IMG/VR virus record: IMGVR_UViG_3300028805_000002
Reading direction: 5' to 3' (one strand)
DNA from: an uncultured virus (IMG/VR IMGVR_UViG_3300028805_000002)
Taxonomy: Duplodnaviria; Heunggongvirae; Uroviricota; Caudoviricetes
DNA: 20,000 nucleotides
Shown here: positions 1 through 14,752 of the stretch, piece after piece
Layout: each line of letters begins with the position of its first letter
Position numbering within the stretch: position 1 is the stretch's first letter
The notes under the pieces: model-generated
Told to the model about the DNA's origin: nothing
Seen by the model: the letters and a program-made list of their open reading frames with translations, nothing else
The model's database searches: none
Program-made: the position numbers and the translations under genes

Positions 1-18
1 TTGATGGCGCGTTCTATC

Positions 19-162
19 TTACCTCTTCCCATATATGCACTCCCTGGTAAGATACTGGCGAGTGCCCGGGACAATCTTCAGACAGGTCTGAAGTCCGTTT
101 CTCTTAATGAGTTCCCGATACGGAATCTTGTATGTGATTGTGGATTTTGCTGTGTTGGTCAT
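19..162 (-). CDS. Small hypothetical protein, 47 aa (MTNTAKSTITYKIPYRELIKRNGLQTCLKIVPGTRQYLTRECIYGKR)
   Basis: Translated by hand (below the ORF-track cutoff). ATG at 162-160, strong SD AGGAGGA (complement of 172-178), TAA at 21-19. Confidence 0.55.
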   Translation of the reverse strand: MTNTAKSTITYKIPYRELIKRNGLQTCLKIVPGTRQYLTRECIYGKR

Positions 163-225
163 AGTGTAATTTCCTCCTAGGGGATATTTACTTCCCTATT
201 CCTATCTTCCCATTTATATGTTCCC

Positions 226-264
226 ATACAAAACACTCCCTTGCCTGTATAGGCTGAGGGAGTG
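226..264 (-). terminator. Probable intrinsic terminator (or processing hairpin) downstream of the 167-aa gene
   Basis: Stem CACTCCCT(234-241)/AGGGAGTG(257-264) with inner GCCT/AGGC, followed on the - strand by TTTTGTAT. Confidence 0.5.
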
Positions 265-370
265 CTGAGTTGTGCGCTTTAAAGTGCCCAGTTGCGTGTC
301 GCGTGTTTATGCGGGTTCACGCGTTTCCGTTCTGTCTACCGTATGGTGTCTTCCCGTATGAGGCTATGCC

Positions 371-874
371 TCAGAATCCTAAGACCTCTGCAACACCGTC
401 CCAGTTCTCTACCTTGAGGGCATATTCATTTGCCCAACCCTCGTGATGTTCCCAGTCGGAGCGTGTAGCCTTGAGTTCCTTGCCAGGGAAAACCCAGGCG
501 CCGTCCTTGAGCGGTCTGATACGAGCGTAGGCTGTCTTGTCTCCCTCTACCTTAGAGATGAGGATGTGTCCCTTCGCGTTTGTTCTGAAGATGTACTTGT
601 CCTTCGGGATGTCTGCTAAGAAGGCGTCGGCAGTGGGGTGCTTGCGTTCCTTCTTCTCTGCGGGTGCTTCCGGTGTCGGCTCTGCAGGTGTCTGTTCTGC
701 GGGAATCTCTTCCTGAGTCTGTTCTGCGAGTGCCTTCTGTTCTGTCTGATATGCTTCAAAGATAGGCATAAAGTCAACTTTGGGCATCTGTTCTGTCTTG
801 CCGTCAACTATGCGGGCAAAGTATGTCTTGTGATTTGTCTTGTATTCTGTGCCGTTGTATGTAAACTGTGTCAT
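371..874 (-). CDS. Hypothetical phage early-type protein, 167 aa, two domains joined by a Pro/Glu/Ala-rich linker
   Basis: ORF track gives 371..946. The real start is most likely ATG at 874 (MTQFTYNG), preceded by SD AGGAGGA (882-888). Linker EIPAEQTPAEPTPEAPAEKK. No family recognised. Confidence 0.8.
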   Translation of the reverse strand: MTQFTYNGTEYKTNHKTYFARIVDGKTEQMPKVDFMPIFEAYQTEQKALAEQTQEEIPAEQTPAEPTPEAPAEKKERKHPTADAFLADIPKDKYIFRTNAKGHILISKVEGDKTAYARIRPLKDGAWVFPGKELKATRSDWEHHEGWANEYALKVENWDGVAEVLGF

Positions 875-956
875 AATAAAATCCTCCTGTGATTTTGTAA
901 AATTGATTTTTTGATGTGGTGCAACTGAACACTTTAACGCGCACAACTCAGTGGCG

Positions 957-1365
957 CACGTTTTCGAGTGCTTTACTTTTGCGCATTGTTATATGCGCTT
1001 AGAAGTACAGGTCATCGTGTAAATCTTCGTGTAATTTGCGCGCGCTTGTAATTACGATTGTGTCGTTATACTCATCATTGACGCAAGTACGATAGAATAA
1101 GAAGAAATCATCAAATTCGGCACAATGTGAATTGAGTTCTGTAATACAGTCAAATATTATCTTTTCGATATTTTCAAATTCGCTGTAAAAGTCTTTATTG
1201 ATACAGCACAAAAAAGCATTACAATTTATCGCTTCATCAAATTGTGCTAAATTGTATTTTTCAAGAATTGAATAGTAGAGTTCATAATTTTTTGTCATTG
1301 TCTTTTATCTCACTTTCATTAGATTTTTTGAGACAATGCGCAAAAACAAAACACTCGAAAACGTG
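957..1365. repeat. 33-bp inverted repeat pair (957-989 / 1333-1365) enclosing the 99-aa ORF
   Basis: CACGTTTTCGAGTGCTTTACTTTTGCGCATTGT vs ACAATGCGCAAAAACAAAACACTCGAAAACGTG: 30/33 complementary. All 3 mismatches are G-T/G-U on the - strand. Confidence 0.95.
999..1298 (-). CDS. Small acidic, Cys-containing hypothetical protein, 99 aa, lacking Gly, Pro and Trp
   Basis: A 300-nt ORF in otherwise stop-rich AT-rich DNA. GG-free SD-like GAAAGTGAG (1316-1308) before the ATG. About 20 D/E vs 7 K/R, and 6 Cys. Confidence 0.7.
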   Translation of the reverse strand: MTKNYELYYSILEKYNLAQFDEAINCNAFLCCINKDFYSEFENIEKIIFDCITELNSHCAEFDDFFLFYRTCVNDEYNDTIVITSARKLHEDLHDDLYF

Positions 1366-2301
1366 ATATTTTGCGCGATATTTTGCACTTTGCATACATT
1401 TTGCGCTTAGATAAAATCAATTATCTAAGAATAGAGCGCGCACTTATAAAATACAGATAGACTTTCAAATTTACTCTAACAAACAATAGTGTTTGAGTGC
1501 ATTTCACAGCGTAGTAATGAACAAGACTTCAATACAACTATGCAACAAGTATATTGTCGTTCGCGTTTACTAATAATTCGCGCATAGTGTTTTTCTACTA
1601 TTCGCACTATTTCACAACAGTGCTATTTTATGACTGTTTATAGCAATAAACTCAAAAATCAACTAATTTTATAGTTAGTATTCACATACTAATAACTATT
1701 ATGCAATTCGTTTATCTAGTGAATTATAACAGCACTCGATTATAATAATCACGTACTATATTATTACACTTTACTATCAACACAGCGCAAACGATTAAAT
1801 AGTTAAGTCTTGTTTTAGAATGATTATATTGTCGAACTAAAGTGTTAAATAATGCACATTACAAGTTACTTTGAGTGTAAGACAATACACTACACAAAAT
1901 ACTTTTATTAGTTTTTTCTTTTGTGTTTTACGTTTTATCACGTTCTAAAACAGTGTCACTAATTACTTAAAAGAAACACAGTGTATTTTTTCAAGTATCA
2001 TTCACTAAACGCGTAAAAGACTAGTGATTTTTATCTGTATTTATTTGTCAAGTTACAGTGTTATTACTTAAAGTATTCGCAACAACTTTTTAGCACTCAT
2101 TACGCGTTAACTCGATATACTCGAATAATACGTTATACTTCAGCGCAAGAACTATAAACAACTAGTGATTATAGAGAACGTATGACTAACTTGTGTATGC
2201 TTGCTAGTTCGTTCTTTTGTTATGCATAGAGTAACGCTTATTAAACGATATTTCAATACAACTTTTGACTTATTTGTTCGATAACGAACAAAAACACGTC
2301 A
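1121..2301. other. GG/CC-dinucleotide-free tract
   Basis: Read base by base: last GG at 1119-1120, next GG at 2302-2303; no CC on the + strand between 888 and 2738. Confidence 0.9.
1460..2300 (-). ncRNA. Candidate large structured non-coding RNA or ssDNA element (unassigned)
   Basis: No convincing ORF. Nested helices 1520-1529/1805-1814, 1557-1565/1786-1794, 1619-1630/1725-1736, 1884-1891/1980-1987, 1915-1922/1969-1976, 1924-1930/1946-1952, 2104-2113/2229-2237. Confidence 0.35.
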
Positions 2302-2352
2302 GGTTGTTCGATAAATACATTAAAACAATAATAATTTATCATTATTCGATAA
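2274..2352. repeat. Three copies of TT(G/A)TTCGATAA; the first also forms the hairpin TTTGTTCG-ATAA-CGAACAAA
   Basis: Copies at 2274-2284, 2304-2314 and 2342-2352. Confidence 0.7.
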
Positions 2353-2409
2353 ACGCTATATAATATGCTTATTATATATAATAAATACGCGTATGCGCAT
2401 GGGGTAATA

Positions 2410-2430
2410 TGATAATGATTATCATTTTCA
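2410..2430. promoter_or_regulatory. Fur-box-like operator
   Basis: TGATAATGATTATCA (2410-2424) is a perfect 7-1-7 TGATAAT-N-ATTATCA. 2411-2429 matches the classical GATAATGATAATCATTATC at 17/19. Confidence 0.6.
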
Positions 2431-2626
2431 AATTCATACATTAGTCTAGTTAGTATCTTTATATAACAGATTATTAGTGTATAGCGCTGTAACGCTCATA
2501 TTTAACGTATAACGCGCTCTAGCACTTATACACAAGAATTTATATTCACAGCGCACGAGCGCGTCACAGATCAAATTTAAAATTTAAGTTAGCACGCATA
2601 TACAAGCGCATACACACGGGCATATT

Positions 2627-2656
2627 TATACGCACGCGCGCGCGCGCACGTACACG
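2627..2656. repeat. 30-bp perfect alternating purine-pyrimidine tract containing (CG)6; Z-DNA-prone
   Basis: TATACGCACGCGCGCGCGCGCACGTACACG. Confidence 0.85.
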
Positions 2657-2817
2657 GGATTCTCGAACTCTTACGTCGAACTTTGTAGACAAGTATGCGC
2701 GGTGCTTGAAAATAGAGGGGATTGGGCATAAAAGTAATCCTAGAGGTGGGTAGGTCGAGTGTGGTAGTAAGGTCGTTCAAGAACGACAGGAAAGGCGTGG
2801 AAAATTAAAAGTAAAAT

Positions 2818-2838
2818 TGAGAATGATTATCATTTTCA
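2818..2838. promoter_or_regulatory. Second Fur-box-like operator, upstream of the morphogenesis operon
   Basis: TGAGAATGATTATCATTTTCA, 20/21 identical to 2410-2430. Confidence 0.55.
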
Positions 2839-2868
2839 GTTTCAAGGTCGAGGTTTGTAGACAAAGTC

Positions 2869-2898
2869 TTGACTAATAGTAGGAGTATGTGTTATTTT
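2869..2898 (+). promoter_or_regulatory. Putative sigma-A promoter for the rightward operon
   Basis: TTGACT (2869-2874), 18-nt spacer containing TG, then TATTTT (2893-2898). Confidence 0.35.
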
Positions 2899-3016
2899 GT
2901 ATATGTAATTGGAGAGATACAATGTTATCGAGGGTCTCTTAGTAAGTCGCCGCAGGGCGCAGGAACGACGGGTGATTAACAGTATATCTTTAGTTATAGA
3001 AGGATAATATAAATAT

Positions 3017-3277
3017 ATGGAAAATGAAACACTAGCAACTGAAATGTTGCACGAACTGAAATCGAATGGCCGAAGGTGGTTTATAGCATTTCTAGTCGTT
3101 CTAATGCTTTGGTTTGCTACTATCGGTGCGTTTCTTTGGTATATCTCTTTGCCCGTGGACGAAACTTCGGTGGAACAGTATGCCGAAGGCAACGACAATT
3201 CTTTTGTTGGTATAGGTGATATGAATGGCGGCGTATCAGAAAGTTACAAGACGCAGGAGAGCACTTCGCAGTCGTAA
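3017..3277 (+). CDS. Small single-pass membrane protein, 86 aa
   Basis: Hydrophobic stretch WFIAFLVVLMLWFATIGAFLWYI after RR; AAGGA SD upstream; first gene of the operon. Confidence 0.75.
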   Translation: MENETLATEMLHELKSNGRRWFIAFLVVLMLWFATIGAFLWYISLPVDETSVEQYAEGNDNSFVGIGDMNGGVSESYKTQESTSQS

Positions 3278-3302
3278 GTCAACCCGTAGAAGGAGACACT
3301 AA
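3225..3302 (+). CDS. Arg-rich 25-aa peptide (MAAYQKVTRRRRALRSRKSTRRRRH)
   Basis: Translated by hand. SD AGGTGA at 3214-3219, ATG at 3225, TAA at 3300-3302, 2 nt before the next ATG. 10 Arg, 2 Lys, no acidic residues. Confidence 0.5.
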   Translation: MAAYQKVTRRRRALRSRKSTRRRRH

Positions 3303-3304
3303 TT

Positions 3305-3622
3305 ATGGCAGCGGCTGGTCAAACACGTACTATCAAAAAGTTACAACAGGCTCTCCAAATGGAAGGAGAGTTAATTCTTATCTCTACTTCTCAATTCTTT
3401 AGTTTGGAAAAGCAGACCACTGTAACAAGATACCACGTTAAGAAACAAGTTCAATCAGGTGAGAAGTATAAGTCTTCTCAGGTTGAACTTTTTTCTTCTT
3501 GTTCACAAATCCAGATTACTCTCTTTTTAAGAGATTATTATTACGAGATTAAAGGATATGAGGTGCCGCAGGATAATCCTTATTGGTTAGCGGCAAAGAA
3601 GAAATATTTTGAGGAGCATTAA
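3305..3622 (+). CDS. Hypothetical phage protein, 105 aa
   Basis: ORF with AAGGAG SD, tightly packed before terS. Confidence 0.8.
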   Translation: MAAAGQTRTIKKLQQALQMEGELILISTSQFFSLEKQTTVTRYHVKKQVQSGEKYKSSQVELFSSCSQIQITLFLRDYYYEIKGYEVPQDNPYWLAAKKKYFEEH

Positions 3623-3624
3623 GT

Positions 3625-4143
3625 ATGGCTGAAAAGAAGAAGAAACCGGGTTATGGTGGAAATCCTAAAGGGTCTGAATATAAACTCTCTATCAGAGAGC
3701 AAAAGTTCGTGTCTCTCTATTTAGAGTACGGTGACCCGAAGAAAGCAGTTGTTGAGGCAAAGTTCAATACTACTGCACCTAGTCAGTACGCTAAGAAACT
3801 CTTGGCTAAGCCGAAAATTCAAAGAGAGATTGCATCACAAATGGAACTCTTTAGAAATGAGTGTATCGCCAGTTCGCAGGAGATTATGAACTTCTACACT
3901 CTCACAATGCGTGGAGAAGTTAAAGACCAGTTCGGTCTTGACGCTACTCTTTCTGACAGACTTAAGGCGGCTGATGCGCTCGCTAAGAGACAGATTGACG
4001 CCAGAGCACTTGCAGAGAAGGCGAGTGACAATGAGTTTAAGGTTACACTTACTTGGGGTGCACCTGCTACTCCTGAGCCTAAACCTGAAGAAGATTTAGA
4101 TGACACCGCTGATGAAGAGGAAGACATAGATGCCGAACAGTAA
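3625..4143 (+). CDS. terS: Terminase small subunit (Terminase_2 / SPP1 G1P-like)
   Basis: N-terminal HTH pattern LSIREQKFVSLYL...AVVEAKF...LLAKPKIQREI and the IAS.QEIM.F.T..MRGEVKDQFGLDATLSDRLKAA..LAKR segment; lies upstream of terL. Confidence 0.9.
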   Translation: MAEKKKKPGYGGNPKGSEYKLSIREQKFVSLYLEYGDPKKAVVEAKFNTTAPSQYAKKLLAKPKIQREIASQMELFRNECIASSQEIMNFYTLTMRGEVKDQFGLDATLSDRLKAADALAKRQIDARALAEKASDNEFKVTLTWGAPATPEPKPEEDLDDTADEEEDIDAEQ

Positions 4144-4525
4144 ACACATCATTATAGACGATAAAGAATATAAGGTGCCTATCGTTGAGTTACAGCGAAA
4201 GGGCGATATTCTTGACTTGACTGCGAACAGAACAGAGGATGGTGTTCTTCACAGAGATGTTATAGGTACATACTATAACTACACGCTTACAATCGGAATT
4301 ATTAACGACCCAGAGTTGTATGAAGAGTTGTGGAACGTCTTAACTGCACCCGTGGCAAGTCACTGGATAGAGTTGCCACACGACCACGTGAGATTTGAAG
4401 GCTACTTCGGTAGTTGTAAAGATAATATTCAGATGATAACAGAAGATGGCTATAAGGCAAAAGGACTGTCTTTCAATCTTGTTGCCACTAGAGCCGCAAG
4501 GACGGCAGTAAATGGCGGTAATTAA
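4130..4525 (+). CDS. Distal-tail (Dit/DUF6711-like) protein, in an atypical position between terS and terL
   Basis: Motif ANRTEDGVLHRDVIGTYYNYTL...YEELWNVLTAP...GLSFNLVA resembles the small beta-rich proteins that normally follow the tape measure gene. Overlaps both neighbours by 14 nt. Confidence 0.6.
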   Translation: MPNSKHIIIDDKEYKVPIVELQRKGDILDLTANRTEDGVLHRDVIGTYYNYTLTIGIINDPELYEELWNVLTAPVASHWIELPHDHVRFEGYFGSCKDNIQMITEDGYKAKGLSFNLVATRAARTAVNGGN

Positions 4526-5771
4526 CGTAAACTTACAAGAATGTATCATACCTATGTATAAAGAAGTGCTCCAAGATGTCTTGGAGCATAAACATACTCA
4601 CTTTATTTTTCCTGGCGGAAGAGGTAGTTGTAAATCTTCTTTTGTAGGCATAGCAATACCTCTTGTACTTGTGAATAATCCGACAGTACACGCAGCCTGC
4701 TTCAGAAAAGTAGGAAATACTATTCAAAACTCTATCAGAGCACAAATTGAGTGGGGAATTTACAAATTAGGTATGCAGGACCTGTTTAATATACCTGCCT
4801 CATACGCAAATCCGATAACTTTTAAGCCTACTGGACAAAAAATCTACTTCTTAGGTCTCGATAAACCAGCAAAAATCAAGTCAATTAAGCCAAAATTCGG
4901 CTACATAGGCATTACTTGGTTCGAGGAGTTGGACCAATTCGCTGGCGAGAATGAAATTCGTACTGTAACACAGTCTACAATGCGTGGTGGCGATAAATAT
5001 TGGGACTTTAGAACATTCAATCCGCCGATTTCAAAGAATAATTGGGCAAATATGTATGCAGATAAGGCCGCTATTTACTCTAAAAGTAGTCTTGTTACCC
5101 GAAATACGTATCTTTCAGTACCGCCAGAGTGGCTTGGACCACAGTTTTTTGAAGAAGCGGAAGAACTTAAAGTACTTAATCCACGCGCTTATGAGCACGA
5201 ATATCTTGGAGTTGCTACAGGAACGGGCGGAGATGTCTTTGAAAACGCCTGTGAACTCGATATGTCAGGTATGATTGACAACTTCGACCATATCTATAAC
5301 GGAATTGACTGGGGTTTTGCAAGAGACCCGTTCAGATTTGTTCGTATGCACTTTGACGCAAGAAAACTCGACCTATATATCTTTGACGAGTTTTCTACCT
5401 ATAAGACACGTAACGAGGACACTTTCCACAGACTATATGATGAAGAGTGCAAAATATCCCGAGACGAATTGGTAACAGCCGATAGTGCGGAAGAAAAATC
5501 TGTTGCAGACTTTAGGGCGTATGGTGCGTTTATCAGACCTGCTAAGAAAGGTCCTGACAGTGTTCGTTATGGAATTAAGTGGTTACAGGGACTTAGACAC
5601 ATCTATATAGACAAAAAACGCTGTCCTGAGACGTTTTATGAGTTCATAAACTATGAATATGAGCGAGATAAGGACGGAAACTTCATTAGTGCGTACCCCG
5701 ATGCAGACAATCATAGTATCGACGCGGTACGCTATGCACTGGAAAACTACTGTAACCGCAGAGGAACATAA
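4512..5771 (+). CDS. terL: Terminase large subunit, PBSX/SPP1 family (headful type)
   Basis: Walker A GGRGSCKS, Walker B WFEE, TFNPP coupling motif, nuclease motifs GIDWG and DADNHSIDAVRYA. Confidence 0.97.
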   Translation: MAVINVNLQECIIPMYKEVLQDVLEHKHTHFIFPGGRGSCKSSFVGIAIPLVLVNNPTVHAACFRKVGNTIQNSIRAQIEWGIYKLGMQDLFNIPASYANPITFKPTGQKIYFLGLDKPAKIKSIKPKFGYIGITWFEELDQFAGENEIRTVTQSTMRGGDKYWDFRTFNPPISKNNWANMYADKAAIYSKSSLVTRNTYLSVPPEWLGPQFFEEAEELKVLNPRAYEHEYLGVATGTGGDVFENACELDMSGMIDNFDHIYNGIDWGFARDPFRFVRMHFDARKLDLYIFDEFSTYKTRNEDTFHRLYDEECKISRDELVTADSAEEKSVADFRAYGAFIRPAKKGPDSVRYGIKWLQGLRHIYIDKKRCPETFYEFINYEYERDKDGNFISAYPDADNHSIDAVRYALENYCNRRGT

Positions 5772-5786
5772 TTTAGGCTTTATCCA

Positions 5787-5815
5787 TTTACTTCTATCTA
5801 CAAAAGTTATAGAAT
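5787..5815 (+). promoter_or_regulatory. Sigma-A promoter giving a predicted leaderless mRNA for the DUF4417 gene
   Basis: TTTACT (5787-5792), 17-nt spacer, TAGAAT (5810-5815). +1 falls at about 5822, the A of the ATG; no SD upstream. Confidence 0.55.
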
Positions 5816-5821
5816 TATGAT

Positions 5822-6439
5822 ATGAGCGAGATGTTAAACCTGCTAACTATGGCGTTTGACGGTGTTGGTGAGTACAACATACCGCAAATTAAGCCAGTTA
5901 CTGAACTCTATGTCAAAGATTGGATAGGGTTTAACTTCGTAGCGTCCACAAGAAAGCAACGAGAAATCACAGGCGTACATTTTTACATAGACGATTATCA
6001 ATTTGAGCGTGTTTGGAACTTTCCTTGGCGCTTTTCCAAGACTTTTAACGAGTTCGGAGCGATAATGACGCCCGATTTCTCAACTTATCTTGATTTTCCT
6101 AAAGCAGTTCGCATATTTAACCACTATCGTAAGCATTGGTGTGGCGCTTATTGGCAAGAAATGGGCGCAACAGTCATTCCTACGATAGAGTGGGGCACTG
6201 AAGAGGACTATTCTTGGTGTTTTGATGGTGAACCAGAAGGAGGAATAGTGGCTGTTTCTAATGTAGGCATTATGCGAAGTAAAGAACTGCGTGAAAATTA
6301 TATGAAAGGCTACAAAGAGATGCTTACAAGACTTCAACCAAAGGAAGTTTTAATGTTTGGGCATATCTTTGATGATTATCCTGGTCCTGTTCATTACATT
6401 CACTATCAGCAAGCAAAGGGTGAACAAGGAGAAGAATAA
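5822..6439 (+). CDS. DUF4417 family protein
   Basis: Signature motifs HFYIDDYQFERVWN, TPDFSTYLDFP, HWCGAYWQ, VIPTIEWG, CFDGEP, VAVS. Confidence 0.9.
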   Translation: MSEMLNLLTMAFDGVGEYNIPQIKPVTELYVKDWIGFNFVASTRKQREITGVHFYIDDYQFERVWNFPWRFSKTFNEFGAIMTPDFSTYLDFPKAVRIFNHYRKHWCGAYWQEMGATVIPTIEWGTEEDYSWCFDGEPEGGIVAVSNVGIMRSKELRENYMKGYKEMLTRLQPKEVLMFGHIFDDYPGPVHYIHYQQAKGEQGEE

Positions 6440-6774
6440 TGGCGAACAAGGCAAGATACTACGGATTGGCAAAAACAGAGCAAAAAGATATGAAAAAGAG
6501 AGCGTCAGAGACCCCGTTTATTAACGTCGAGGAACTTACGCCGTGGACTGTTTACTCTGTTTTAGCACTTTATCCAACAATAGATGCGTCCTCGTCTCAG
6601 ACAGCAACACGCAGAATGAAGGAAGAACTGATAAAAAACGGGTTTAATGGTAAAATAGAAGTGAATGGTAGCAGTATTTCAGACGGCACAAACACTTATG
6701 TTTTAACTAAAACCAGTTCTAATGGCATAATGATAGTAAAGGAAACACACGAAGAAAAGAGACGTAAGAGGTAA
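6439..6774 (+). CDS. Hypothetical basic protein, 111 aa
   Basis: TAATG stop/start overlap with the DUF4417 gene; AAGGAG SD. Confidence 0.75.
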   Translation: MANKARYYGLAKTEQKDMKKRASETPFINVEELTPWTVYSVLALYPTIDASSSQTATRRMKEELIKNGFNGKIEVNGSSISDGTNTYVLTKTSSNGIMIVKETHEEKRRKR

Positions 6775-6777
6775 AAT

Positions 6778-8556
6778 ATGAGCGTATGGTCAACTATAAC
6801 AGAAAAGGTAAAGGGGATTATAACTAAAATGATTGGTAGACAAGACATTGAAGAAGTATTGAGAGTAAAACCCGCAATTTCTAACGAAATGGTGCAGGCC
6901 ATTGAGTTATGGTCGGCTATGTATGAGGGAAGAGCGCCGTGGCTCAAAGAGCCAACAAAAGATGACCCGTCAGCAGTTAAATCGTTAGGATTACCTCAAC
7001 TTATTGCGAGTGAAAAAGCGAGAACGGCGCTTATTGAGTTCGAGAGTGAAATTACAACACCTATTCTCGATAGCGAGCCTGCTACTCCCAACTATCTGAA
7101 CAAGGATAATGTAGGAACAGACGGTCAACCCGAGCCGATGGTATCTACACCTCTTGTTATGAAGGATATTCCTAAGGGTAGTACAAAAAGAGCACAGTTT
7201 CTTAATAAACAGTATGTAAAACTCAAAGAGGCACTTCGTATTCAACTTGAGTACGGTATTGCAAAGGGTGGACTTGTTGTTAAGCCCTACATAATTAAGC
7301 ATAACAATCAGACGCTTCATCAAGAAACAGATATGATGACAGGTGAAAAGAGTCAAGACGAGAGCGACACTGGTTATGAGTTCGAGTTTGACTACATTCA
7401 GGCAAACGAGTTCTATCCTCTCGCATTTGACGGAAGCGGAAAGATGACTGAAGCCGCCTTTATTCAGCGAAAGGTAGATAAGGACATTATTTACAGCCGT
7501 CTTGAATATCACAAGTTGGAAGATAACACTGTTACAGTTATAAACAAGGCGTTTAAGGCAAACTCTCGTTCTATGAAGGCGGACTATCTTGGAGAGGAAA
7601 TTCCGCTTACAGATGTTCCAGAGTGGGCGATGCTCTCAGCAGAAACGAAGATTGCCAATGTAAATCGTTTGCTTTTTGCGTACTTTAAGATGCCTGAAGC
7701 AAACACGATTGATACACACAGTCCTCTTGGTGTAAGTGGCTTTGATAAAGTTAAGAGCCTTATAGCGGAAGCCGATAGACAGTATTCAAGACTTCTTTGG
7801 GAGTTCGAGGGTGGCGAACTTGCTATTGATATTGATAGAAACGCGCTGACTTGGCTTGAAGACCCGAAGAATCCTGAAAGCGGTCACTCTGTTATGGGAA
7901 CATTACAGAACAGGCTTTATCGTAAAGTTGACCTTAATGAAGACAATACGTATGAAGTTTTCTCTCCTACACTTAGAGACCAGTCGATTATAAACGGACT
8001 TAACTGTATCTTAATGAGAATAGAAGACGGCGCTGGAATTTCTCGTGGCACTCTTTCTGACGTTGTAAGCGAGGCTAAGACCGCGACAGAGTTAAGAATG
8101 TTGCGTATTAGAAGTTATGAGACCAACGCACACATACAGAAAGCCACAGAGAAGATGCTTAGAGACGTTATATATGTAATGAATGTCTACTGTGACCTTT
8201 ACAAAATTACAGAAGAGGGCGAGTATGAGGTATCATTTGAGTGGGATGACAGTATTTTGAGCGATAGCGATACGGAACTTACAAAGAGAATGATACTTAT
8301 GCAGAATGGTCTTGCTGGTAAGGTTGAAACTCGTATGTGGTACTTTGGCGAAACAGAGCGTCAGGCAAGAGAGGCACTTATCAAAATTCAGCAAGAAAAT
8401 CTTGAGGCTGTTCAGCAGAATGTTGCCGAAATGGAAATACTCGGACAAACACCAGAAAGTCAAAAGAACGAAAGTCCAAAAGCACCCAACAATAACAACA
8501 ACAATAACAGCAACAATAATTTTAAGAGTGGTGACAATCAATATAGCAACAAATGA
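6778..8556 (+). CDS. Portal protein (A118/SPP1 Gp6-like)
   Basis: 592 aa after terL; motifs YFKMPEANTIDTHSPLGVS, QYSRLLWEFEGGE, KTATE, VSFEWDDS. Confidence 0.92.
   Translation: MSVWSTITEKVKGIITKMIGRQDIEEVLRVKPAISNEMVQAIELWSAMYEGRAPWLKEPTKDDPSAVKSLGLPQLIASEKARTALIEFESEITTPILDSEPATPNYLNKDNVGTDGQPEPMVSTPLVMKDIPKGSTKRAQFLNKQYVKLKEALRIQLEYGIAKGGLVVKPYIIKHNNQTLHQETDMMTGEKSQDESDTGYEFEFDYIQANEFYPLAFDGSGKMTEAAFIQRKVDKDIIYSRLEYHKLEDNTVTVINKAFKANSRSMKADYLGEEIPLTDVPEWAMLSAETKIANVNRLLFAYFKMPEANTIDTHSPLGVSGFDKVKSLIAEADRQYSRLLWEFEGGELAIDIDRNALTWLEDPKNPESGHSVMGTLQNRLYRKVDLNEDNTYEVFSPTLRDQSIINGLNCILMRIEDGAGISRGTLSDVVSEAKTATELRMLRIRSYETNAHIQKATEKMLRDVIYVMNVYCDLYKITEEGEYEVSFEWDDSILSDSDTELTKRMILMQNGLAGKVETRMWYFGETERQAREALIKIQQENLEAVQQNVAEMEILGQTPESQKNESPKAPNNNNNNNSNNNFKSGDNQYSNK
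8488..8520 (+). repeat. (AAC/AAT)n trinucleotide run encoding the portal's poly-Asn tail
   Basis: AACAATAACAACAACAATAACAGCAACAATAAT = NNNNNNNSNNN. Confidence 0.8.
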
Positions 8557-9740
8557 TTACCGATGAACAGATAGAGGACATCATATTTAAGTACACAAGT
8601 CGGCAAGACGAGTTCAATATGTCTGTAATAAATGTTATTGCAGACAGACTGGCTCATATTGCCGATTTTGATGCACTTAACACGATGGACAGTGTTACGG
8701 TACGCATTAAAGATATTAAGAAACTAAAGGAACTTCACGCTGAATATAGAAAAAGTCAGAGCAAGCACCTGAAAGATACGTTGTGGTGGATTGCTGTCGT
8801 TGTGTATTTAGAAAGTCTGAAGTTTTACGAGGTTAAGACAGAACTTGAAATGAACAAGGCATTGATGCGTGCAATAGAGGATATAACCATAGACGCGCAA
8901 AAAAGCCTTGATAAGGTCTTATCGCACCCTGCCATTGTAATGCGCGATTTAAAGTCTCCTGTCGTTCTTAAAGCCTACAATTTAGAGCAAGCATATAATT
9001 CAATACTTCAAGAGGCCGTATCGTACAGTAATGTATCGAAAGAGTTACGGGACATAGCGTTAAAACGCACAGAAACGCAGTTATTTGACAGCGGCGTGCG
9101 ATATATGACAAATGTATCATCTGACAGCGTAAAAGACACTGTAAGCGCAAATAACACGATTAGAATGAGTGTGTTAGATAGCATTAAAAATCTGATAAAT
9201 AAAATGCAAGAAATTATGGGCAAGCAGTTTGGTGCTGATGCGGTAGAACTGTCTGCTCATATCTATCCTGCACCAGACCACGCACCTGCTCAAGGACATC
9301 AATTTTCTCTTAAAGAGGTCGAAAAGATGCAGAGTGGTATGGATTTTGAAGACTTGCAAGGTCATAGTTACATCGGGTTTGAGCGTAATATTGGGGAGTG
9401 GAATTGCAGACACTATTTTATGCGTATAAAGAAGGGCACATCTCCAACTTATACGCAAGAGCAATTAAACAAGATATTAGAGGATAATGAGCGCGGTTAT
9501 ACTGATGAACAAGGAAAACACCGCACGTTATACGAGTGTACACAAGTTCAGCGCAGATATGAACGAGAAATCAGAAAAGCAAAAGAAAAATACCTGTATG
9601 GCAAAACACTAAACGACCAAATAATGATGTCGAGAGCCAGAAACAGGGTGGGTGTATTAACAACGCAGTATAAACAATTCAGCAAAAAGTGTGATATTCC
9701 CGCAAAACTTGAAAGAATTAGGGTGAAATATTATAAGTAA
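8553..9740 (+). CDS. Minor capsid protein (Phage_min_cap2 / head morphogenesis family)
   Basis: Follows the portal with an ATGA overlap; motifs ELSAH..PAPDHAPAQG, WNCRH, YECTQVQRRYEREIRKAK. Confidence 0.88.
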   Translation: MITDEQIEDIIFKYTSRQDEFNMSVINVIADRLAHIADFDALNTMDSVTVRIKDIKKLKELHAEYRKSQSKHLKDTLWWIAVVVYLESLKFYEVKTELEMNKALMRAIEDITIDAQKSLDKVLSHPAIVMRDLKSPVVLKAYNLEQAYNSILQEAVSYSNVSKELRDIALKRTETQLFDSGVRYMTNVSSDSVKDTVSANNTIRMSVLDSIKNLINKMQEIMGKQFGADAVELSAHIYPAPDHAPAQGHQFSLKEVEKMQSGMDFEDLQGHSYIGFERNIGEWNCRHYFMRIKKGTSPTYTQEQLNKILEDNERGYTDEQGKHRTLYECTQVQRRYEREIRKAKEKYLYGKTLNDQIMMSRARNRVGVLTTQYKQFSKKCDIPAKLERIRVKYYK

Positions 9741-9742
9741 TG

Positions 9743-9771
9743 TTGACATTTGCGCCTATATATTATAATAT
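9743..9771 (+). promoter_or_regulatory. Sigma-A promoter for scaffold/capsid genes
   Basis: Consensus TTGACA (9743-9748), with TATAAT at 9764-9769 (15-nt spacer) or TAATAT at 9766-9771 (17-nt spacer). Confidence 0.6.
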
Positions 9772-9780
9772 GGAAGTATG

Positions 9781-9803
9781 AAATTGAGAATTGTTCTCAA
9801 TTT
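9781..9803. promoter_or_regulatory. Palindromic operator (Fur-box-like) just downstream of the promoter
   Basis: AAATTGAGAA-TTG-TTCTCAATTT; the core TGAGAATTGTTCTCA resembles the sites at 2410 and 2818. Could instead be a weak terminator hairpin. Confidence 0.45.
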
Positions 9804-9950
9804 TTATGGCTCCTAACGATAATACAGGCAATACGCCTTTATTATATTGTCTCGTTCCAGACATTTAAACAGGAACACAATCAACGCAGACCGCGACTGC
9901 GACATTATAAATAAAGCGGATATAAAAGATTGTTTTAGGAGGAATTTTTC

Positions 9951-10634
9951 GTGAACATCAAAGAGATTTTTGACAAGGCAGAGAACGGCACTTTAACTTT
10001 TGAACAGTTTGAGGCAATCGCTAAAGACGGTGGTGCGAAGTTTACCGACCTTTCTGAAGGCAAGTACGTCAGTAAGTCAAAGTATGACGATGATATTGGT
10101 GCTAAAGACACTTCCATCACACAACTTAATGACACTATCGCACAGAGAGATAAGGACCTTGGTGACTTGCAGACAAAGTTAAAGGAAGCAGGAACTGACA
10201 CATCGAAGTTAGCCGATTTACAGGCAAATTTTGACTCTTTGCAGAGTAAGTACACCGCAGATATGCAGGCTTATCAACAGCAACTTGCTGACCAAAAGTA
10301 TGAGTTTGCAGTTAAGGAGTTCGCTAACGGCAAGGAATTTACGAGTCAGGCGGCTAAGAGAGATTTTGTTAGGTCTTTGTTAAGCGAAAAGTTGAAGATG
10401 AAGGACGACACTATCATAGGTGCAGAAGACTTCGTTACTGCTTATACAAAGGACAACGAAGATGCTTTTGTAACTAAGAAAGAGTCCAACGAACCTGGAA
10501 CTCCTAATAACGGAAGTAACCAGGGTAAGCCACAATTCGTGAGTACGACACCAGGTACTACTCCGAAAAAGACACCTACATTGACAGAGTTAATGAAGGC
10601 GGCAAATGAAAACCCTGGTACTCAAATATTGTAA
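9951..10634 (+). CDS. Capsid scaffolding protein (Phage_GP20-like)
   Basis: GTG start with AGGAGGA SD; GKYVSKSKY motif, coiled coil, Pro/Gly-rich C-terminus; directly precedes the major capsid gene. Confidence 0.88.
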   Translation: MNIKEIFDKAENGTLTFEQFEAIAKDGGAKFTDLSEGKYVSKSKYDDDIGAKDTSITQLNDTIAQRDKDLGDLQTKLKEAGTDTSKLADLQANFDSLQSKYTADMQAYQQQLADQKYEFAVKEFANGKEFTSQAAKRDFVRSLLSEKLKMKDDTIIGAEDFVTAYTKDNEDAFVTKKESNEPGTPNNGSNQGKPQFVSTTPGTTPKKTPTLTELMKAANENPGTQIL

Positions 10635-10666
10635 AAACAAGACATTGAATTAAGGAGGAAACAAAA

Positions 10667-11881
10667 ATGTCGGAAGTTTTTAACGCTAAGATTTTTAATG
10701 GCGAAGTATTCCAGAAGTACGTTGACCGTATTCCTAATACCAAGTTAAACGAACTCATTAAGTCCAGAGCAATCGTTCAGAGACCTGACCTTGCATCTGC
10801 AATGGCTGACCAGGCTGGTGGAAACTACATCACAACACCTCTCAAGGGTCTTATCAGTGGTTCTGTTCCGCTCAACTATGATGGTGAAACAAACATTACT
10901 GCCAACTCTACAAAGACATTCTCTCATTCAAGAGTTGTTATAGGTCGTGCTAATGCTTGGACAGAGAGAGACTTCTCCTATGACATCACAGGCGGTGTTG
11001 ACTTTATGGAGAACATCGCACAGCAGATTTCAGAGTATTGGGACGAAGTTGACCAAGATACACTCGTTCATATTCTTAATGGTGTATTCAATATGTCTGA
11101 CGCTAAGGGTCAAGAGTTCGTACAGACACATACCTATGACGTAACAGCCGCTACAAACAGCGAGGGTGTTGTTGGTTATATGGACGGTACAACGCTCAAT
11201 ACTGCTATTCAGAGAGCGTGCGGTGACCATAAGGGTAAGTTCTCTATGGCAATTATGCACTCTTTCGTTGCTACAAACCTCGAGAACCTCAAGTTGCTCG
11301 TTTATCTCAAGTATAACGATGCTAACGGTCTTCAGAGAGACCTTTCCATCGGTACGCTCAATGGTAGACTCGTAATGGTTGATGATAGTATGCCTACTGC
11401 TGAGGACGAGTCCACAGCAACATACACGAAGACATCTGACCAGGCTGTTGTTGCAGGCAAGACATATTACACACGTTCTGGTTCTTCTCCGAACTATGTA
11501 TACACACCTGTTGCAGAGCCTGCCGATGCTAACATCGGTTCTTACTATGAGAAGACCGCCGCTGGTAAGATTGCATACACAACTTATGTATTTGGCGACG
11601 GCGCTATCGAGTATACAAACTGCGGTGCTAAGGTGCCTTATGAAATGAGCCGTGACCCTATGACAAATGGTGGTCAGGACACTCTCTATGCACGTCAGAG
11701 AAAGTGCTTCGCTCCTTACGGCATCTCTTTCACAAAGGACACAATGGCAAGTCTTTCTCCTACGGATGCTGAACTTGAACTCGGTGCTAACTGGGAACTC
11801 GTAAACAGCAAGGAGGCTAACGGCAAGCAGTATATCAGCCTCAAGGCTATCCCGATTGCAAGAATTATCTCTCTCGGCTGA
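10667..11881 (+). CDS. Major capsid protein with an inserted Tyr/Thr-rich module
   Basis: FNAKIFNGEVF start; motifs GRANAWTERDFS, MHSFVATNLENL, TLNGRLVMVDD, RDPMTNGGQDTL; strong AAGGAGG SD. Confidence 0.93.
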   Translation: MSEVFNAKIFNGEVFQKYVDRIPNTKLNELIKSRAIVQRPDLASAMADQAGGNYITTPLKGLISGSVPLNYDGETNITANSTKTFSHSRVVIGRANAWTERDFSYDITGGVDFMENIAQQISEYWDEVDQDTLVHILNGVFNMSDAKGQEFVQTHTYDVTAATNSEGVVGYMDGTTLNTAIQRACGDHKGKFSMAIMHSFVATNLENLKLLVYLKYNDANGLQRDLSIGTLNGRLVMVDDSMPTAEDESTATYTKTSDQAVVAGKTYYTRSGSSPNYVYTPVAEPADANIGSYYEKTAAGKIAYTTYVFGDGAIEYTNCGAKVPYEMSRDPMTNGGQDTLYARQRKCFAPYGISFTKDTMASLSPTDAELELGANWELVNSKEANGKQYISLKAIPIARIISLG

Positions 11882-11925
11882 TGGGATTTTAAGTTAAACA
11901 CTAGAGATATTAAGGAGGGTTTCAG

Positions 11926-12360
11926 ATGGTTTACTACTTAACGTATGACGAGTATTCAGATATGGGTGGTACACTTGACGAAACCCTCTTTGATACTCTT
12001 AGACTTGACGCACAAGGTTATATTGACTGGTATACGTTCAATCGTCTTTGGAAAGAAGAGTGGCGCACAGAAGAGATTATGGAACGTGTTAAGATTTGTA
12101 TGTATCAACTCATTGGATTGGTTGCTACAAAGGCAAATCTTATCACACCCCAAACAAATTCTGCTGGTATCAACATCAATGCACAAGTATCACAGCAATC
12201 TAACGATGGTGTCTCAACTACATACGGCGTATTAAGCGGAGAACTTCTGTTTACACACGCAAAGAAAGAGATAGAGGACAGCATCAATCGTTATCTTGCA
12301 GGCGTTATGAACAGTGCTGGACGCAAGTTACTGTATAGAGGTTTATATCCTAATGAGTAA
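11926..12360 (+). CDS. Head-tail connector (adaptor, SPP1 gp15-like)
   Basis: Motifs YLTYDEY..MGG, IDWYTFNRL, SQQSNDGVSTTY, LLYRG; follows the capsid gene. Confidence 0.8.
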   Translation: MVYYLTYDEYSDMGGTLDETLFDTLRLDAQGYIDWYTFNRLWKEEWRTEEIMERVKICMYQLIGLVATKANLITPQTNSAGININAQVSQQSNDGVSTTYGVLSGELLFTHAKKEIEDSINRYLAGVMNSAGRKLLYRGLYPNE

Positions 12361-12817
12361 TTTTCCGTTTGCTTGGTGGGACAAGACGTTGACAATCTAT
12401 AATCGAATTGTTGACCCAAATACTCAACGAGTTAGTTGGCAAAGAACAGTTGTTAGAAACTGTTTTTGGAAATATGTCAACAATATCTATAATATGGGTA
12501 GATACGGAATGTCCTCTCTGGGTATTCGTGTAGAGACAAAAGACATCATTTGCAGAATACCTAAAGATAAGCGTTTCGTTGACAAAAGAGCGTGGAAGTC
12601 TCTTGATGATAAGACAGGCCACTTTACTCTTGGTAATGGTGATATAATTATCTTAGGTGAAGTGCAGGATGTTATTGACGAGTATACAGCAGGACAGCGT
12701 TCTACTGATTTACTCGCAAAGTACAAAGAAGAGGACGCGTGTCTTGAAGTTGATACTTATGTCGATAACGTACAGACAGGTGTAGGCTTAGAGCATTACA
12801 GAGTAATAGGTAAGTGA
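12353..12817 (+). CDS. Head-closure / head completion protein
   Basis: Start placed at ATG 12353, overlapping the previous gene. Motifs TLTIYN...WQRTVVRNCFW, FTL..GDIIILGEV, LEHYRVIGK; synteny. Confidence 0.7.
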   Translation: MSNFPFAWWDKTLTIYNRIVDPNTQRVSWQRTVVRNCFWKYVNNIYNMGRYGMSSLGIRVETKDIICRIPKDKRFVDKRAWKSLDDKTGHFTLGNGDIIILGEVQDVIDEYTAGQRSTDLLAKYKEEDACLEVDTYVDNVQTGVGLEHYRVIGK

Positions 12818-12818
12818 T

Positions 12819-13523
12819 ATGGCTAACGGAATAATGTATCACGTACAGGTAACTAACGGTGTAAAGAAGTGGGGTGTTGATTGGACAGACTCGCTTCAGT
12901 TTTTAACCTGTAAAACACATATGACTGATTTAGCCAAAGGCTATCGTTACTATATCAACAAATATGTGCCTAAAAAGAGCGGACGTCTTCGTAGGTCGGC
13001 AAGACCAAAAGGCACTACTGACGGGGCCGCATCTGGTTCAGCAAGAGTGTATTGGGGTCAGACATCAAAGACAGAGAAGTACGCACACTATCAGTTTGTT
13101 GGTGATGTGTACTCGCCTAGCAAGCCTGTGTTTTTAAAGAATGGCAAACAGATTGGCTGGGTTTCACCGAAAGGTAAAAAGAAAGTTCTTTCAAGTCCCG
13201 TAAGAAAACTCGGAGAAGGTACACCGTACACGTACACTGTACGCAATGGACTTGTAAAAACACCGATGGGTTACAAGTTAGTCAAAGGAGACTTTGAAGT
13301 AACAGTTAAGGGCTATACCACAAAAGGCACTGGCTACAACTGGATTCAGAGATTTCACGATGATAATGGAGACTTCGGAGAAAAGGCGATTAACATACGT
13401 GCTGGTAGATATATGTATGAGAAGTTCTGTAATGAACTTCACAAACACGATAAATCGGTACGTGCAAGAGGCGGCTACTCAATTTTAAGAAGTTGGAATC
13501 AGATTAAGAATAGAGTTGATTGA
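12819..13523 (+). CDS. Neck / minor capsid protein (Minor_capsid_2 / HK97 gp10-like position)
   Basis: Motifs YVPKKSGRLRRS and YAHYQF; basic protein; synteny. Confidence 0.7.
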   Translation: MANGIMYHVQVTNGVKKWGVDWTDSLQFLTCKTHMTDLAKGYRYYINKYVPKKSGRLRRSARPKGTTDGAASGSARVYWGQTSKTEKYAHYQFVGDVYSPSKPVFLKNGKQIGWVSPKGKKKVLSSPVRKLGEGTPYTYTVRNGLVKTPMGYKLVKGDFEVTVKGYTTKGTGYNWIQRFHDDNGDFGEKAINIRAGRYMYEKFCNELHKHDKSVRARGGYSILRSWNQIKNRVD

Positions 13524-13524
13524 T

Positions 13525-13998
13525 ATGGATAAAAACAAGGCTACATTAGATTTTCTTGCTACTTATTCAGGTATGGCGACAAGCCCTATCTTTGTCAACT
13601 TTATGAACGCAAAAGATGATGATGTTCAGTTTTTAACCGCGTCAAATGACGTTGCAACACAGCGTCCTTTTATAGATGGAAGTGTAATGAAGCAATACAC
13701 ATTCTCTCTAATTATAACCAAGACCGTAACTGATATGCCTATTGCCAAAGACATTATGACTAATGAAAACATTGACGATATAGCAGACCTTCAGAAATTT
13801 ATGGATTGGGTTAATGAACAAGGAGAAAACAACATTTTTCCTGATTTTGGAGAGTTGTGTGAGATTGAGAAAATGTACACAACATCAGAGAGTCCCGATT
13901 TAACGGGCATTAACACAGAAGTCAGTCCTGCTCTCGCTCTGTATAGTATGGAGATTAGGATTGATTATATAGACTATTCAAAAGTTATTTGGTCATAA
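13525..13998 (+). CDS. Tail terminator / tail completion protein (putative)
   Basis: Precedes the major tail gene; motifs FIDGSVMKQYTF, FMDWVNEQ..NNIFPDFG, YSMEIRIDY. Alternative TTG start at 13516. Confidence 0.65.
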   Translation: MDKNKATLDFLATYSGMATSPIFVNFMNAKDDDVQFLTASNDVATQRPFIDGSVMKQYTFSLIITKTVTDMPIAKDIMTNENIDDIADLQKFMDWVNEQGENNIFPDFGELCEIEKMYTTSESPDLTGINTEVSPALALYSMEIRIDYIDYSKVIWS

Positions 13999-14016
13999 GA
14001 AAGGAGAAAGAAGTTT

Positions 14017-14682
14017 ATGGCTATTAACAAGTTTAACCTTAATCTCCATCAGAGAGCAGAAAGAAAGTTGCTCATTACCGTTGCTGAGTGGAGGGACAAC
14101 GATAGCGGTAAGTTGTACGTTCTTCAGGACAAGGAGCCTGGAGATTGGGACACAAAGTACACTGAGTATTACACGAAGAGCAACGACACATACTCTCCTG
14201 TAACTGGTGATACTGCACCTGCTTGGGCAGCATCCACATACTACACAAGAGTTAATCGTGAAATTCTTGGTCGTAGAACAGAGGACTCTTCTATTGAGTA
14301 CAACGCTGATATTGAGACAACCACAGATATTCTCGGTATCAACTACACAGACCTCAACAGAACACAGCCTCAGCAGGACTTCGACCCGTATCTCATTCTC
14401 GGTGGCTCTTTGCTTGGTGAGAAGTTGAACGACATTCGTAAGAGAAACGCACTCACAGAGTTGTCCGACTTTACTCTTTACGTTATTACAGCGTTTGTTG
14501 GTGATGCAGAGAACGGCTATGAGGCAGAGCGTCATTCAGGTTGTACAATCACATACAACTCTATCGGTGGCGATGCAAACGTAAATATGCCTATATCCGC
14601 ATATTTCTCTAACAATCTCACAAACGGCGTTGTTGATAAGTTGTCAGACGATTTCACATTTACGCCCGATGTTAATGTATAA
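14017..14682 (+). CDS. Major tail (tube) protein with an inserted Tyr/Thr-rich module
   Basis: Motifs ILGRRTEDSSIEYN.DIETTTDILG and SIGGDANVNMPI; strong GAAAGGAG SD; synteny. Confidence 0.85.
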   Translation: MAINKFNLNLHQRAERKLLITVAEWRDNDSGKLYVLQDKEPGDWDTKYTEYYTKSNDTYSPVTGDTAPAWAASTYYTRVNREILGRRTEDSSIEYNADIETTTDILGINYTDLNRTQPQQDFDPYLILGGSLLGEKLNDIRKRNALTELSDFTLYVITAFVGDAENGYEAERHSGCTITYNSIGGDANVNMPISAYFSNNLTNGVVDKLSDDFTFTPDVNV

Positions 14683-14736: not shown

Positions 14737-14752
14737 ATTACAGGAGGTATTT

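Follow-up and report, generated by a model that had tools for sequence, protein, structure and literature searches.

The window analyzed here, the whole stretch of 20,000 nucleotides from the uncultured Caudoviricetes virus record IMGVR_UViG_3300028805_000002, carries beside its packaging operon a cassette whose + strand has no CC dinucleotide over 1.85 kb. The small open reading frame (ORF) of the cassette lies on the minus strand, so that the word which is completely absent is GG on the sense strand, and in the core of the cassette both GG and CC are missing. The same rule is found in relatives without homology of the sequences that follow it, it acts at synonymous sites, and RNA of the zone is present in metatranscriptome libraries. 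We tentatively favor purifying selection as its cause, which would keep an accessory early cassette free of targets for a strand-specific reader of GG tied to the expression of the cassette. The zone itself had been reported in an initial annotation of the window; new here are its asymmetry between strands, the test at synonymous sites, the data from RNA libraries and the rejection of a link with the DUF4417 gene. As that annotation supposed, no published description of such a zone was found in the literature on DUF4417, protospacer-adjacent motif (PAM) depletion, GpG/CpC avoidance, first-step transfer and DpdA context.

Extent, composition and layout of the zone

The window has 40% GC and contains 855 GG and 446 CC in total. 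Its longest run without either word measures 1183 bp, from a GG at 1119 to a GG at 2302, and the runner-up measures 215 bp; the longest CC-free run of the + strand measures 1853 bp, between CC at 886 and 2739, and its runner-up 288 bp. These computed counts agree with the limits given in the initial annotation (no GG or CC at 1121-2301 and no + strand CC at 888-2738), and its rough expectation of 40-50 GG and CC for the core was close to the value of about 51-52 obtained from composition. The core 1121-2301 shows 16.2% C and 13.1% G, with 0 CC vs 30.9 expected and 0 GG vs 20.3 expected, and its GC content is 29%, in relation to 41% in the remaining window. The flanks use both words freely, as had also been noted: the observed/expected values are 62/53 for CC and 47/54.5 for GG at 1-887, and 383/555 and 781/898, respectively, at 2800-20000. 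In a chance background of 174 loci, comprising 1.99 Mb of phage and metagenome DNA, the most extreme run corresponded to at most 11 expected sites, while the zones described here correspond to 45-103.

The steps CG and GC are both in excess in the core (42 and 40, respectively, with 25 expected for each). Much of this excess is predicted by the ban itself, since a maximum-entropy model whose sole constraint is that GG and CC are forbidden gives 34 in the window. Three non-coding zones exceed this model 1.2-1.6-fold for CG/GC and reach 0.55-0.8 of it for GA, AG, TC and CT, GA/TC being the most depleted of the allowed steps. Deamination of C to T at CC was rejected, given that CT, TC, AG and GA are the rarest allowed steps, which is the opposite of the expectation. 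General invisibility to restriction was also rejected: GCGC, CGCG, ACGT, TCGA and CTAG are plentiful in the zone, and the window core keeps 8, 6, 7 and 7 copies, respectively, of the first four. Periodicities of 10-11 bp and 3 bp were looked for in the zone and neither was found, which excludes phased bent DNA as well as a coding sequence in decay. Inverted repeats are frequent in the zone and words containing AGC are enriched; no tRNA and no tandem arrays of note were found in it.

The zone, the features inside it and its two borders are the following:

888-2738, no strand: domain without + strand CC, that is, without GG on the minus (leftward sense) strand; CC 0 vs 51.5 expected, + strand GG 18 vs 43.8 expected.
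1121-2301, no strand: core without GG and CC, from dinucleotide counts.
999-1298, minus strand: 99-aa ORF of the cassette, without a family or fold match; its first 59 codons lie inside the core.
1288-1346, minus strand: conserved translation-initiation element, predicted; inverted repeat I6 (1288-1303 / 1331-1346) with GAAAGTGAG in the loop.
1299-2207, minus strand: leader or non-coding part, poor in ORFs (none above 43 aa) and represented in RNA libraries.
883-887, minus strand: GGAGG ribosome-binding site of the 167-aa gene (CCTCC on the + strand); first sense-strand GG beyond the zone, and its left edge.
371-874, minus strand: conserved 167-aa gene adjoining the cassette, with normal GG/CC content; 31% identity to a 184-aa protein of the relative L083 (E 8e-16).
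2612-2740, + strand: conserved right border block with GGGCAT and GGGATT motifs, the first TTTGTAGACAAGT box at 2682-2694 and a putative leftward promoter.

Between 1299 and about 2700 there is no ORF longer than 43 aa, except a 62-aa frame at 2253-2441. The coincidence of the left edge with the ribosome-binding site of the 167-aa gene had been correctly recognized before. No family was found in Pfam for the 167-aa protein.

Recurrence in relatives and strand asymmetry

Relatives were collected from viral contigs through DUF4417 (195 of 197 candidates were confirmed, of which the best 80 were used) and, with an alignment of the conserved 105-aa protein encoded to the right of the zone, from metagenome contigs (28 loci). 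Loci whose 105-aa protein is at least 62% identical are taken as close relatives, and 12 of them have at least 1 kb upstream. Three of these 12 show a zone at the same place: L083 has 1668 bp without GG or CC (103 expected), L006 has about 1.7 kb strongly depleted, with GG/CC-free runs of 465 and 433 bp, and L090 has a zone of 649 bp that begins where its contig does (45 expected). Only a short AT-rich stretch poor in GG/CC is seen in L004, where it takes up the first 265 bp of the contig, and in L007, where it measures about 500 bp, and seven of the 12 (L086, L089, L091-L094 and L107) show no zone at that place, nor do ten more distant relatives (L096-L100 and L102-L106). The complete close relative G001, of 72,967 bp (CheckV 100%), which assembles as a permuted or overlapping linear record, has no zone anywhere; the ban thus belongs to an accessory cassette and would not be a requirement of DNA entry in this lineage. 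Zone-less relatives (L089 at 1100-1500, L091 at 5300-5700 and L092-L094 at 1100-2300) carry instead, immediately before the 105-aa gene, a stretch enriched in GG/CC (e.g., 54 in 200 bp vs 33), which is a different insert in the same hot spot.

Zones resemble one another only at either end: in the start-site element that precedes the small ORF, and in the block of the right border. The central kilobases share no more 8-mers/10-mers than dinucleotide shuffles do, and no relationship was detectable among the small ORFs of the zones when compared with one another. The rule is therefore conserved and the sequence is not, and by these alignments the zone is an accessory, hypervariable cassette. The annotated phage collection gave no DNA match to the zone or to the whole window; viral contigs gave 0 matches to an exact 45-nt pattern of the zone, and no relatives with the 167-aa, 99-aa and TerS proteins or with the 167/184-aa alignment. 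A 17-nt motif of the start site matched 59 unrelated loci, none with a zone, which were used as background only, and the sole match in the genome collection, one Leptospira locus, was discarded as spurious.

The + strand CC-free spans of the window, L083 and L006 measure 1853, 1952, and 1812 bp, with 0 CC in each of them vs 51.5, 75.9, and 63.4 expected, respectively. In the same intervals the + strand has 18, 8, and 22 GG vs 43.8, 54.8, and 56.5 expected. Since all three loci encode the small ORF on the minus strand, the absolute ban is on GG in the sense strand; as for sense CC, the cores of the window and L083 are the only places where its ban is total. This asymmetry does not fit a symmetric duplex reader, such as a PAM read on either strand or a palindromic restriction site, and it tells against the first of two models put forward in the initial annotation, a leader invisible to defences that read GG/CC, which is also at odds with the zone-less G001. 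At the left edge, the first sense GG appears 111, 91, and 66 nt past the ORF stop in the window, L083 and L006, respectively, and the right edge of the sense-GG-free domain is the first TTTGTAGA box of the conserved control region.

In L006, the GG of the + strand stands mostly in an oriented word, ACGGAT(A/T), found five times (1412, 1972, 2086, 2113, 2184 and others), and GGAT is present in about 11 of 19 GG clusters. ATCC/GGAT is the top enriched 4-mer of this locus (7 vs 0.5), and on sequence grounds the word is probably an oriented protein-binding site.

The five zone ORFs, with 537 codon positions (532 residues and 5 stops), contain 0 Gly, 0 Trp and 4 Pro, in comparison with 6.3% Gly, 1.2% Trp and 3.2% Pro in the structural proteins. 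When expectations are taken from phage codon usage and the actual amino acids, codon junctions of the type xxG-Gxx are found in 0 of 148 cases vs 23.1 expected, and those of the type xxC-Cxx in 4 of 60 vs 8.2 expected. A ban that is seen at synonymous junctions acts on nucleic acid. The rule prevails over protein composition, over codon choice at synonymous junctions and over the ribosome-binding site, and this part of the earlier interpretation, a selected and sharply bounded ban which overrides coding and ribosome-binding site, is upheld, while its two specific models fare worse.

The 99-aa ORF of the window has zero Gly, Pro and Trp, and its ribosome-binding site is the GG-less GAAAGTGAG (1309-1317), both as initially described; the neighbouring genes use GGAGG or AGGAG. 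Judging by three homologues of its product, which are 65-75% identical with conservative changes, have 0 Gly and 0 Trp and, in two of them, one Pro each, this ORF is a real conserved gene. The AF2 model of the protein (pLDDT 78.5) gave no match in the structure atlas or in Foldseek, and no family was found for the zone ORFs in Pfam, PHROGs and PADLOC; a PADLOC row for the L006 zone ORF (E 4.5e-4) was weak and is not trusted. The same GG-less ribosome-binding motif was found in L006, L004 and L083. The start-site element of the window, one of only two conserved parts of the zone, shows 86% identity over 58 nt with that of L083. It precedes otherwise unrelated small ORFs at 1288-1346 of the window (minus strand), at about 3824-3881 of L083, at about 1325-1345 of L006 and at 1-25 of L004. 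A putative 7-bp stem pairs the start-codon region with an upstream arm and leaves the ribosome-binding site in the loop, and the element may be a translational switch.

Expression of the cassette and a proposed reader of GG

Two metatranscriptome runs, X3 and X4, from one sample of one study contain contigs identical to the window, and the runs that match it are labelled sheep gut metagenome. The highest RNA depth was found in the contig 287-918 (82 in X3 and 72 in X4), and the zone is represented by contigs at 1008-2207 (47.8, X3) and at 954-1329 and 1375-1968 (13 and 10, respectively, X4). To the right of the zone, depths were 10.6 at 2918-3670 (X3) and 8.45 at 2942-3255 (X4), and most contigs of late genes in both runs showed a depth of 2-6; the DNA run X1, a possible source of the window, has a flat depth of 37.5. 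Within one phage genome the RNA depth of the zone is 10-20-fold higher than that of the late genes, which is not what contaminating DNA would give. No RNA contig of either run covers 2208-2917, a hole that proves nothing and is compatible with a divergent promoter region, and the contig start at 2918 fits the predicted rightward promoter. A leftward promoter may be located in the right border block, where the minus strand shows TTACTT (2733-2728), 17 nt and TATTTT (2710-2705); its counterpart in L006 is TTACTT, 16 nt and TATAAT. Contigs of the RNA libraries end in adapter letters exactly at window positions 287, 918 and 954, and these ends may mark discrete RNA ends, namely those of a 630-nt mRNA of the 167-aa gene and of a cassette RNA ending after the 99-aa ORF. 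No read pile-ups that mark genome termini were seen over the window, as judged from contigs alone.

The strand-specific ban, its end 66-111 nt past the ORF stop and the abundance of the RNA in vivo suggest that the reader would be connected with the expression of the cassette. The cassette is bounded on one side by the conserved control region of the packaging operon and on the other by the first conserved gene that points leftward. Its parts are a leader of about 0.9-1.1 kb that is poor in ORFs, a conserved hairpin at the start site whose ribosome-binding site is GG-less, and a single small ORF, which is variable. In the mechanism proposed, the cassette would be transcribed leftward. Purifying selection would keep GG fully off the sense strand, that is, CC off the would-be template strand, and would also keep the complementary word largely off the sense strand. 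The reader may act on the transcript, where the 30S subunit or a RegB-type endoribonuclease would recognize a GG-containing Shine-Dalgarno-like word; alternatively, it may act on one DNA strand of the transcription unit, where a strand-specific nick or lesion at CC would block RNA polymerase only when the CC is in the template. The RegB endoribonuclease of T4 cleaves GGAG in early mRNAs. The likeness with the cassette is that Shine-Dalgarno words containing GG would decide the survival of the transcript; the difference is that a RegB-like activity does not account for the loss of CC.

Several points weigh against a reader tied to expression. The main weakness is that a second reason is needed for the loss of CC, since a GG ban at the RNA level leaves unexplained both the CC loss in the cores of the window and L083 and the five-fold depletion of CC in L006. 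No candidate reader (RNase, nickase or RegB-like gene) was found in the 20-kb window or in the family scans of G001. The RNA contigs come from one sample and give no strand, no ends and one depth each. Furthermore, the last RNA contig stops at 2207, about 500 bp short of the right end of the + strand CC-free domain, and L006 and L083 show sense GG 25-50 nt downstream of the putative leftward promoter, so that the right edge marks where the variable region ends and is no mapped start of a transcript. In L090, the zone ORFs are on the + strand and both GG and CC are missing, and for this reason it cannot tell the sense strand from a fixed strand; the three asymmetric loci share one architecture, which makes the sense strand inseparable from a fixed orientation relative to the packaging genes.

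A ban which deletes Gly, Trp and the Shine-Dalgarno core implies a reader of very low specificity with a very high cost per site, and among readers that act on the early regions of phages we know of none like this. Given the asymmetry, the candidates are reduced to processes with a direction, namely transcription, translation of the RNA, nicking of one specific strand and directional nucleases. It is a more doubtful proposition that the zones reveal a widespread form of conflict between phages and hosts that has not been described before, based on a factor which recognizes bare GG on one strand of early phage DNA or on its transcript. If so, unrelated phages would answer the GG reader with GG-free cassettes, including leaders, ribosome-binding sites and proteins without Gly and Trp, and the strand asymmetry would be the first handle on this reader, which would be directional and tied to expression. 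A host defence in this role would be a new one, and a ribosome or RNase in this role would represent an unrecognized mode of early gene expression. Given that the cassettes are variable, early and accessory, like anti-defence loci, the rule could be a sequence-only marker for such loci in uncultured phages.

The strand bias could also have a mutational origin, in which transcription-associated damage or an enzyme acts strand-specifically on GG of the exposed non-template strand with no selection against GG. The stricter strand would then be the non-template strand of a highly expressed unit, the zone is AT-rich and diverges very fast, and CG, GC, AC and CA exceed AG, GA, CT and TC, as transversions at GG/CC would leave. 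We consider this origin very improbable: 0 of 50-76 expected sites in three lineages, together with a conserved folded protein free of Gly and Trp, would need an implausibly strong and precise pressure, the zone edges are sharp, and the adjacent 167-aa gene, with higher RNA depth, has normal GG/CC. In addition, most of the CG/GC excess is already predicted by the model that forbids GG and CC.

Marginally less probable still is that the ban is a by-product of a large structured non-coding RNA, with helices made of A-U, G-U and alternating GC pairs. About 0.9-1.1 kb of the zone is ORF-free and abundant in the RNA libraries, it has many inverted repeats, and its fold in the window shows a z-score against shuffles of -3.6 in the minus sense and -0.7 in the plus sense. 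However, one segment of L083 folds alike on both strands (z -5.6 and -5.3) and in the other segment neither strand stands out, which suggests that the fold signal comes mostly from DNA palindromes. Rfam gave for window 1-4000 a sole match at E 0.68, which is chance, and no match to a model of the ROOL/GOLLD type. The central zones are unalignable, so that covariation cannot be shown, the rule extends to ORFs and synonymous sites, and to our knowledge no RNA architecture requires the absence of GG.

Possible defence evasion or DNA modification, and the packaging region

The asymmetry could be reconciled with evasion of a DNA-level defence whose cost depends on orientation, by which an anti-defence cassette near a pac/cos end would be kept free of a short DNA word. 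We regard this explanation as unlikely, although it ranks next after a reader tied to expression. The word could be a CC/GG PAM, a Type III-like asymmetric site or the target of a nuclease that enters at the end. In Type I systems, Cas3 moves away from the PAM in a single direction, and would thus either enter the genome or leave it at the nearby end; a single reader with two degrees of severity would account for one strict strand and one leaky strand. NAG and NGA are weak PAMs, and the depletion of AG, GA, CT and TC in the three non-coding zones would agree with such a reader. The zone is directly upstream of the packaging control region, and its hypervariable small ORFs precede a conserved gene, as in known anti-defence loci. 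The main weakness is that a target elsewhere in the genome is still lethal, so that a purge of 1-2 kb needs extra assumptions. Besides, G001 has the same packaging module and no zone, and the many other short palindromes retained in the zone mean that it is not generally invisible to restriction.

Strand-biased avoidance of sites is known for Type III restriction, in the case of T7 and EcoP15I. There, too, an asymmetric word is tolerated in one orientation only; it is one 6-bp site genome-wide, and here a dinucleotide in a 2-kb cassette. According to the available text of PMC12455610, the absence of restriction motifs in Autographiviridae is confined to the leading region, and these motifs matter only in this variable, first-injected region; that of PMC10644984 describes the first-step-transfer DNA of T5/BF23 as a motif-free first-injected region. 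Like in these leading regions, the word is avoided in a short variable early region near the genome end or packaging genes and is free elsewhere. Unlike in them, where 4-7-bp restriction motifs of one host are avoided, the word is here a strand-specific dinucleotide whose ban removes Gly, Trp and the canonical ribosome-binding site, and the zone is not common to relatives with the same packaging/entry apparatus (none in G001, present in 3/12 close relatives). The first-step-transfer region of T5 has normal GG/CC, which also speaks against defence evasion. Depletion of PAMs in phages has been reported and attributed to selection by host readers, as far as the available text shows (PMC4246573; PMC12174588). 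GG and CC are the cores of common PAMs; however, the published cases, in that same text, are mild, genome-wide and on either strand, while the ban described here is total, local and asymmetric.

Avoidance of palindromes has shaped this phage strongly. In the window at 2801-20000, the observed/expected counts are 0/61 for AGCT, 0/61 for CATG, 1/61 for GATC, 3/29 for CCGG, 8/61 for CTAG and 8/29 for GGCC, and in the whole genome of G001 they are 1/245 for CTAG, 2/245 for GATC, 5/245 for AGCT and 20/245 for CATG. From these counts the purge is classical restriction-site avoidance of unusual strength, and it indicates that the lineage relies on the avoidance of sites, including those that contain CC/GG. 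Such a purge is in line with defence evasion, while the genome-wide loss of CCGG and GGCC argues against a modification that protects GG/CC sites.

This last possibility is quite unlikely on the whole. It proposes that the phage modifies a base at GG/CC-type sites, in a DpdA-like way or by glycosylation of hydroxymethyl-pyrimidines, and that the cassette stays unmodified, strictly on one strand, to be read from incoming DNA. The second model of the initial annotation was of this kind and named as the candidate modifier the product of a gene of the packaging operon:

5822-6439, + strand: DUF4417 gene (E 8.5e-53), between the large terminase and portal genes.

DUF4417 was found in 493 phage records, mostly beside terminase genes or the genome end, and annotated as nuclease or hypothetical. 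Its model (pLDDT 84.8) is a compact TIM-like barrel, and in an all-against-all structural search the three top matches were guanine transglycosylases (TGT): ArcTGT, the archaeosine TGT (Z 10.5, rmsd 3.3, 175 aligned), DpdA (Z 9.6) and QTRT2 (Z 9.5), with generic TIM barrels at or below Z 8.8, the value of the best unrelated one. Foldseek gave no match for the model at E <= 0.001, the DUF4417 profile found no TGT by sequence, and the resemblance to guanine transglycosylases is not stated in the literature found on DUF4417. The modeled likeness to TGT/DpdA is a lead and counts in favor of the initial annotation, but it does not explain the zone. None of the three complete DUF4417 genomes (G001, Streptococcus phage A25 and MM1) has a zone, the largest expected-in-run value being 9.4, and 70 more distant DUF4417 loci (L011-L080, among the best 80 of 195) have no zone within the 5-20 kb of each. 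The link between DUF4417 and the zone was therefore rejected.

Other observations on modification point both ways. G001 encodes, at 13.7-24.2 kb beside a family A DNA polymerase, two TET-associated (TAGT) glycosyltransferases, a 133-aa ParB-like protein, a 401-aa ORF without family, a Caps_synth-like glycosyltransferase and two nucleotidyltransferases, which likely form a DNA-glycosylation module; this genome is nevertheless zone-less. No TET (PF12851) or C5-methyltransferase (PF00145) match was found in G001 at E <= 1, and FolE and QueC/D/E were found neither among its 55 ORFs of at least 100 aa (E 0.001) nor among the ORFs re-scanned at E 1. Known phage systems read contexts of 2-3 nt: in the available text of the sources, GA and GGC for the DpdA 7-deazaguanine modification of CAjan (PMC7544227), GA for the DpdA-type modification of phage iggy (PMC10484667), GpC[C/T] for a phage hypermodification (PMC8256090) and NTC/NTG for another phage modification (PMC13229309). 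Like the DpdA systems, an enzyme here would read a 2-3-nt G-purine context, the DUF4417 model resembles DpdA/TGT, and GA is the next most depleted step. Unlike them, no preQ0 pathway genes were seen in the G001 ORFs scanned, and that available text describes no modification-free zone for CAjan or iggy. Hypermodification by C5-methyltransferase, TET and glycosyltransferase differs in that G001 has only the TAGT glycosyltransferases and the zone is enriched for GC and does not avoid GpC[C/T]. Finally, and against this model, the highest RNA depth is that of the neighbouring 167-aa gene, in which GG/CC abound.

To the right of the zone, the window shows, in this order, an 86-aa membrane-like ORF, the conserved 105-aa ORF, TerS (3625), TerL (4512), DUF4417 (5822), the portal gene (6778) and head genes. 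The region between the zone and these genes contains two further features:

2628-2656, no strand: perfectly alternating purine-pyrimidine tract of 29 nt, CG/CA type, in inverted repeat I9.
2854-2898, + strand: second TTTGTAGACAAAGT box and predicted rightward promoter of the packaging operon, with TTGACT (2869), 18 nt and TATTTT (ends at 2898).

The second box and the rightward promoter are conserved in L004, L006, L007 and L083. The two conserved boxes, TTTGTAGA(C/T)AA(A)GT, at 2682-2694 and 2854-2867 of the window, are about 170 bp apart and flank the packaging-operon promoter, as do two copies (2412 and 2823) of the palindrome-like word AATGATTATCATTTTCA. Boxes and words, which are kept in the same four loci, are likely sites of a regulator or of the terminase. 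The alternating tract at 2628-2656 is Z-DNA-prone by composition and separates, with the rest of the gap, the leftward unit from the divergent rightward one; in L083 such tracts are longer (about 5030-5170). At the junction of the portal and minor-capsid genes, an AAT/AAC-rich low-complexity stretch (8487-8520) differs in length from run to run (a deletion of 6 nt, alternative inserts), and unrelated contigs are drawn to it.

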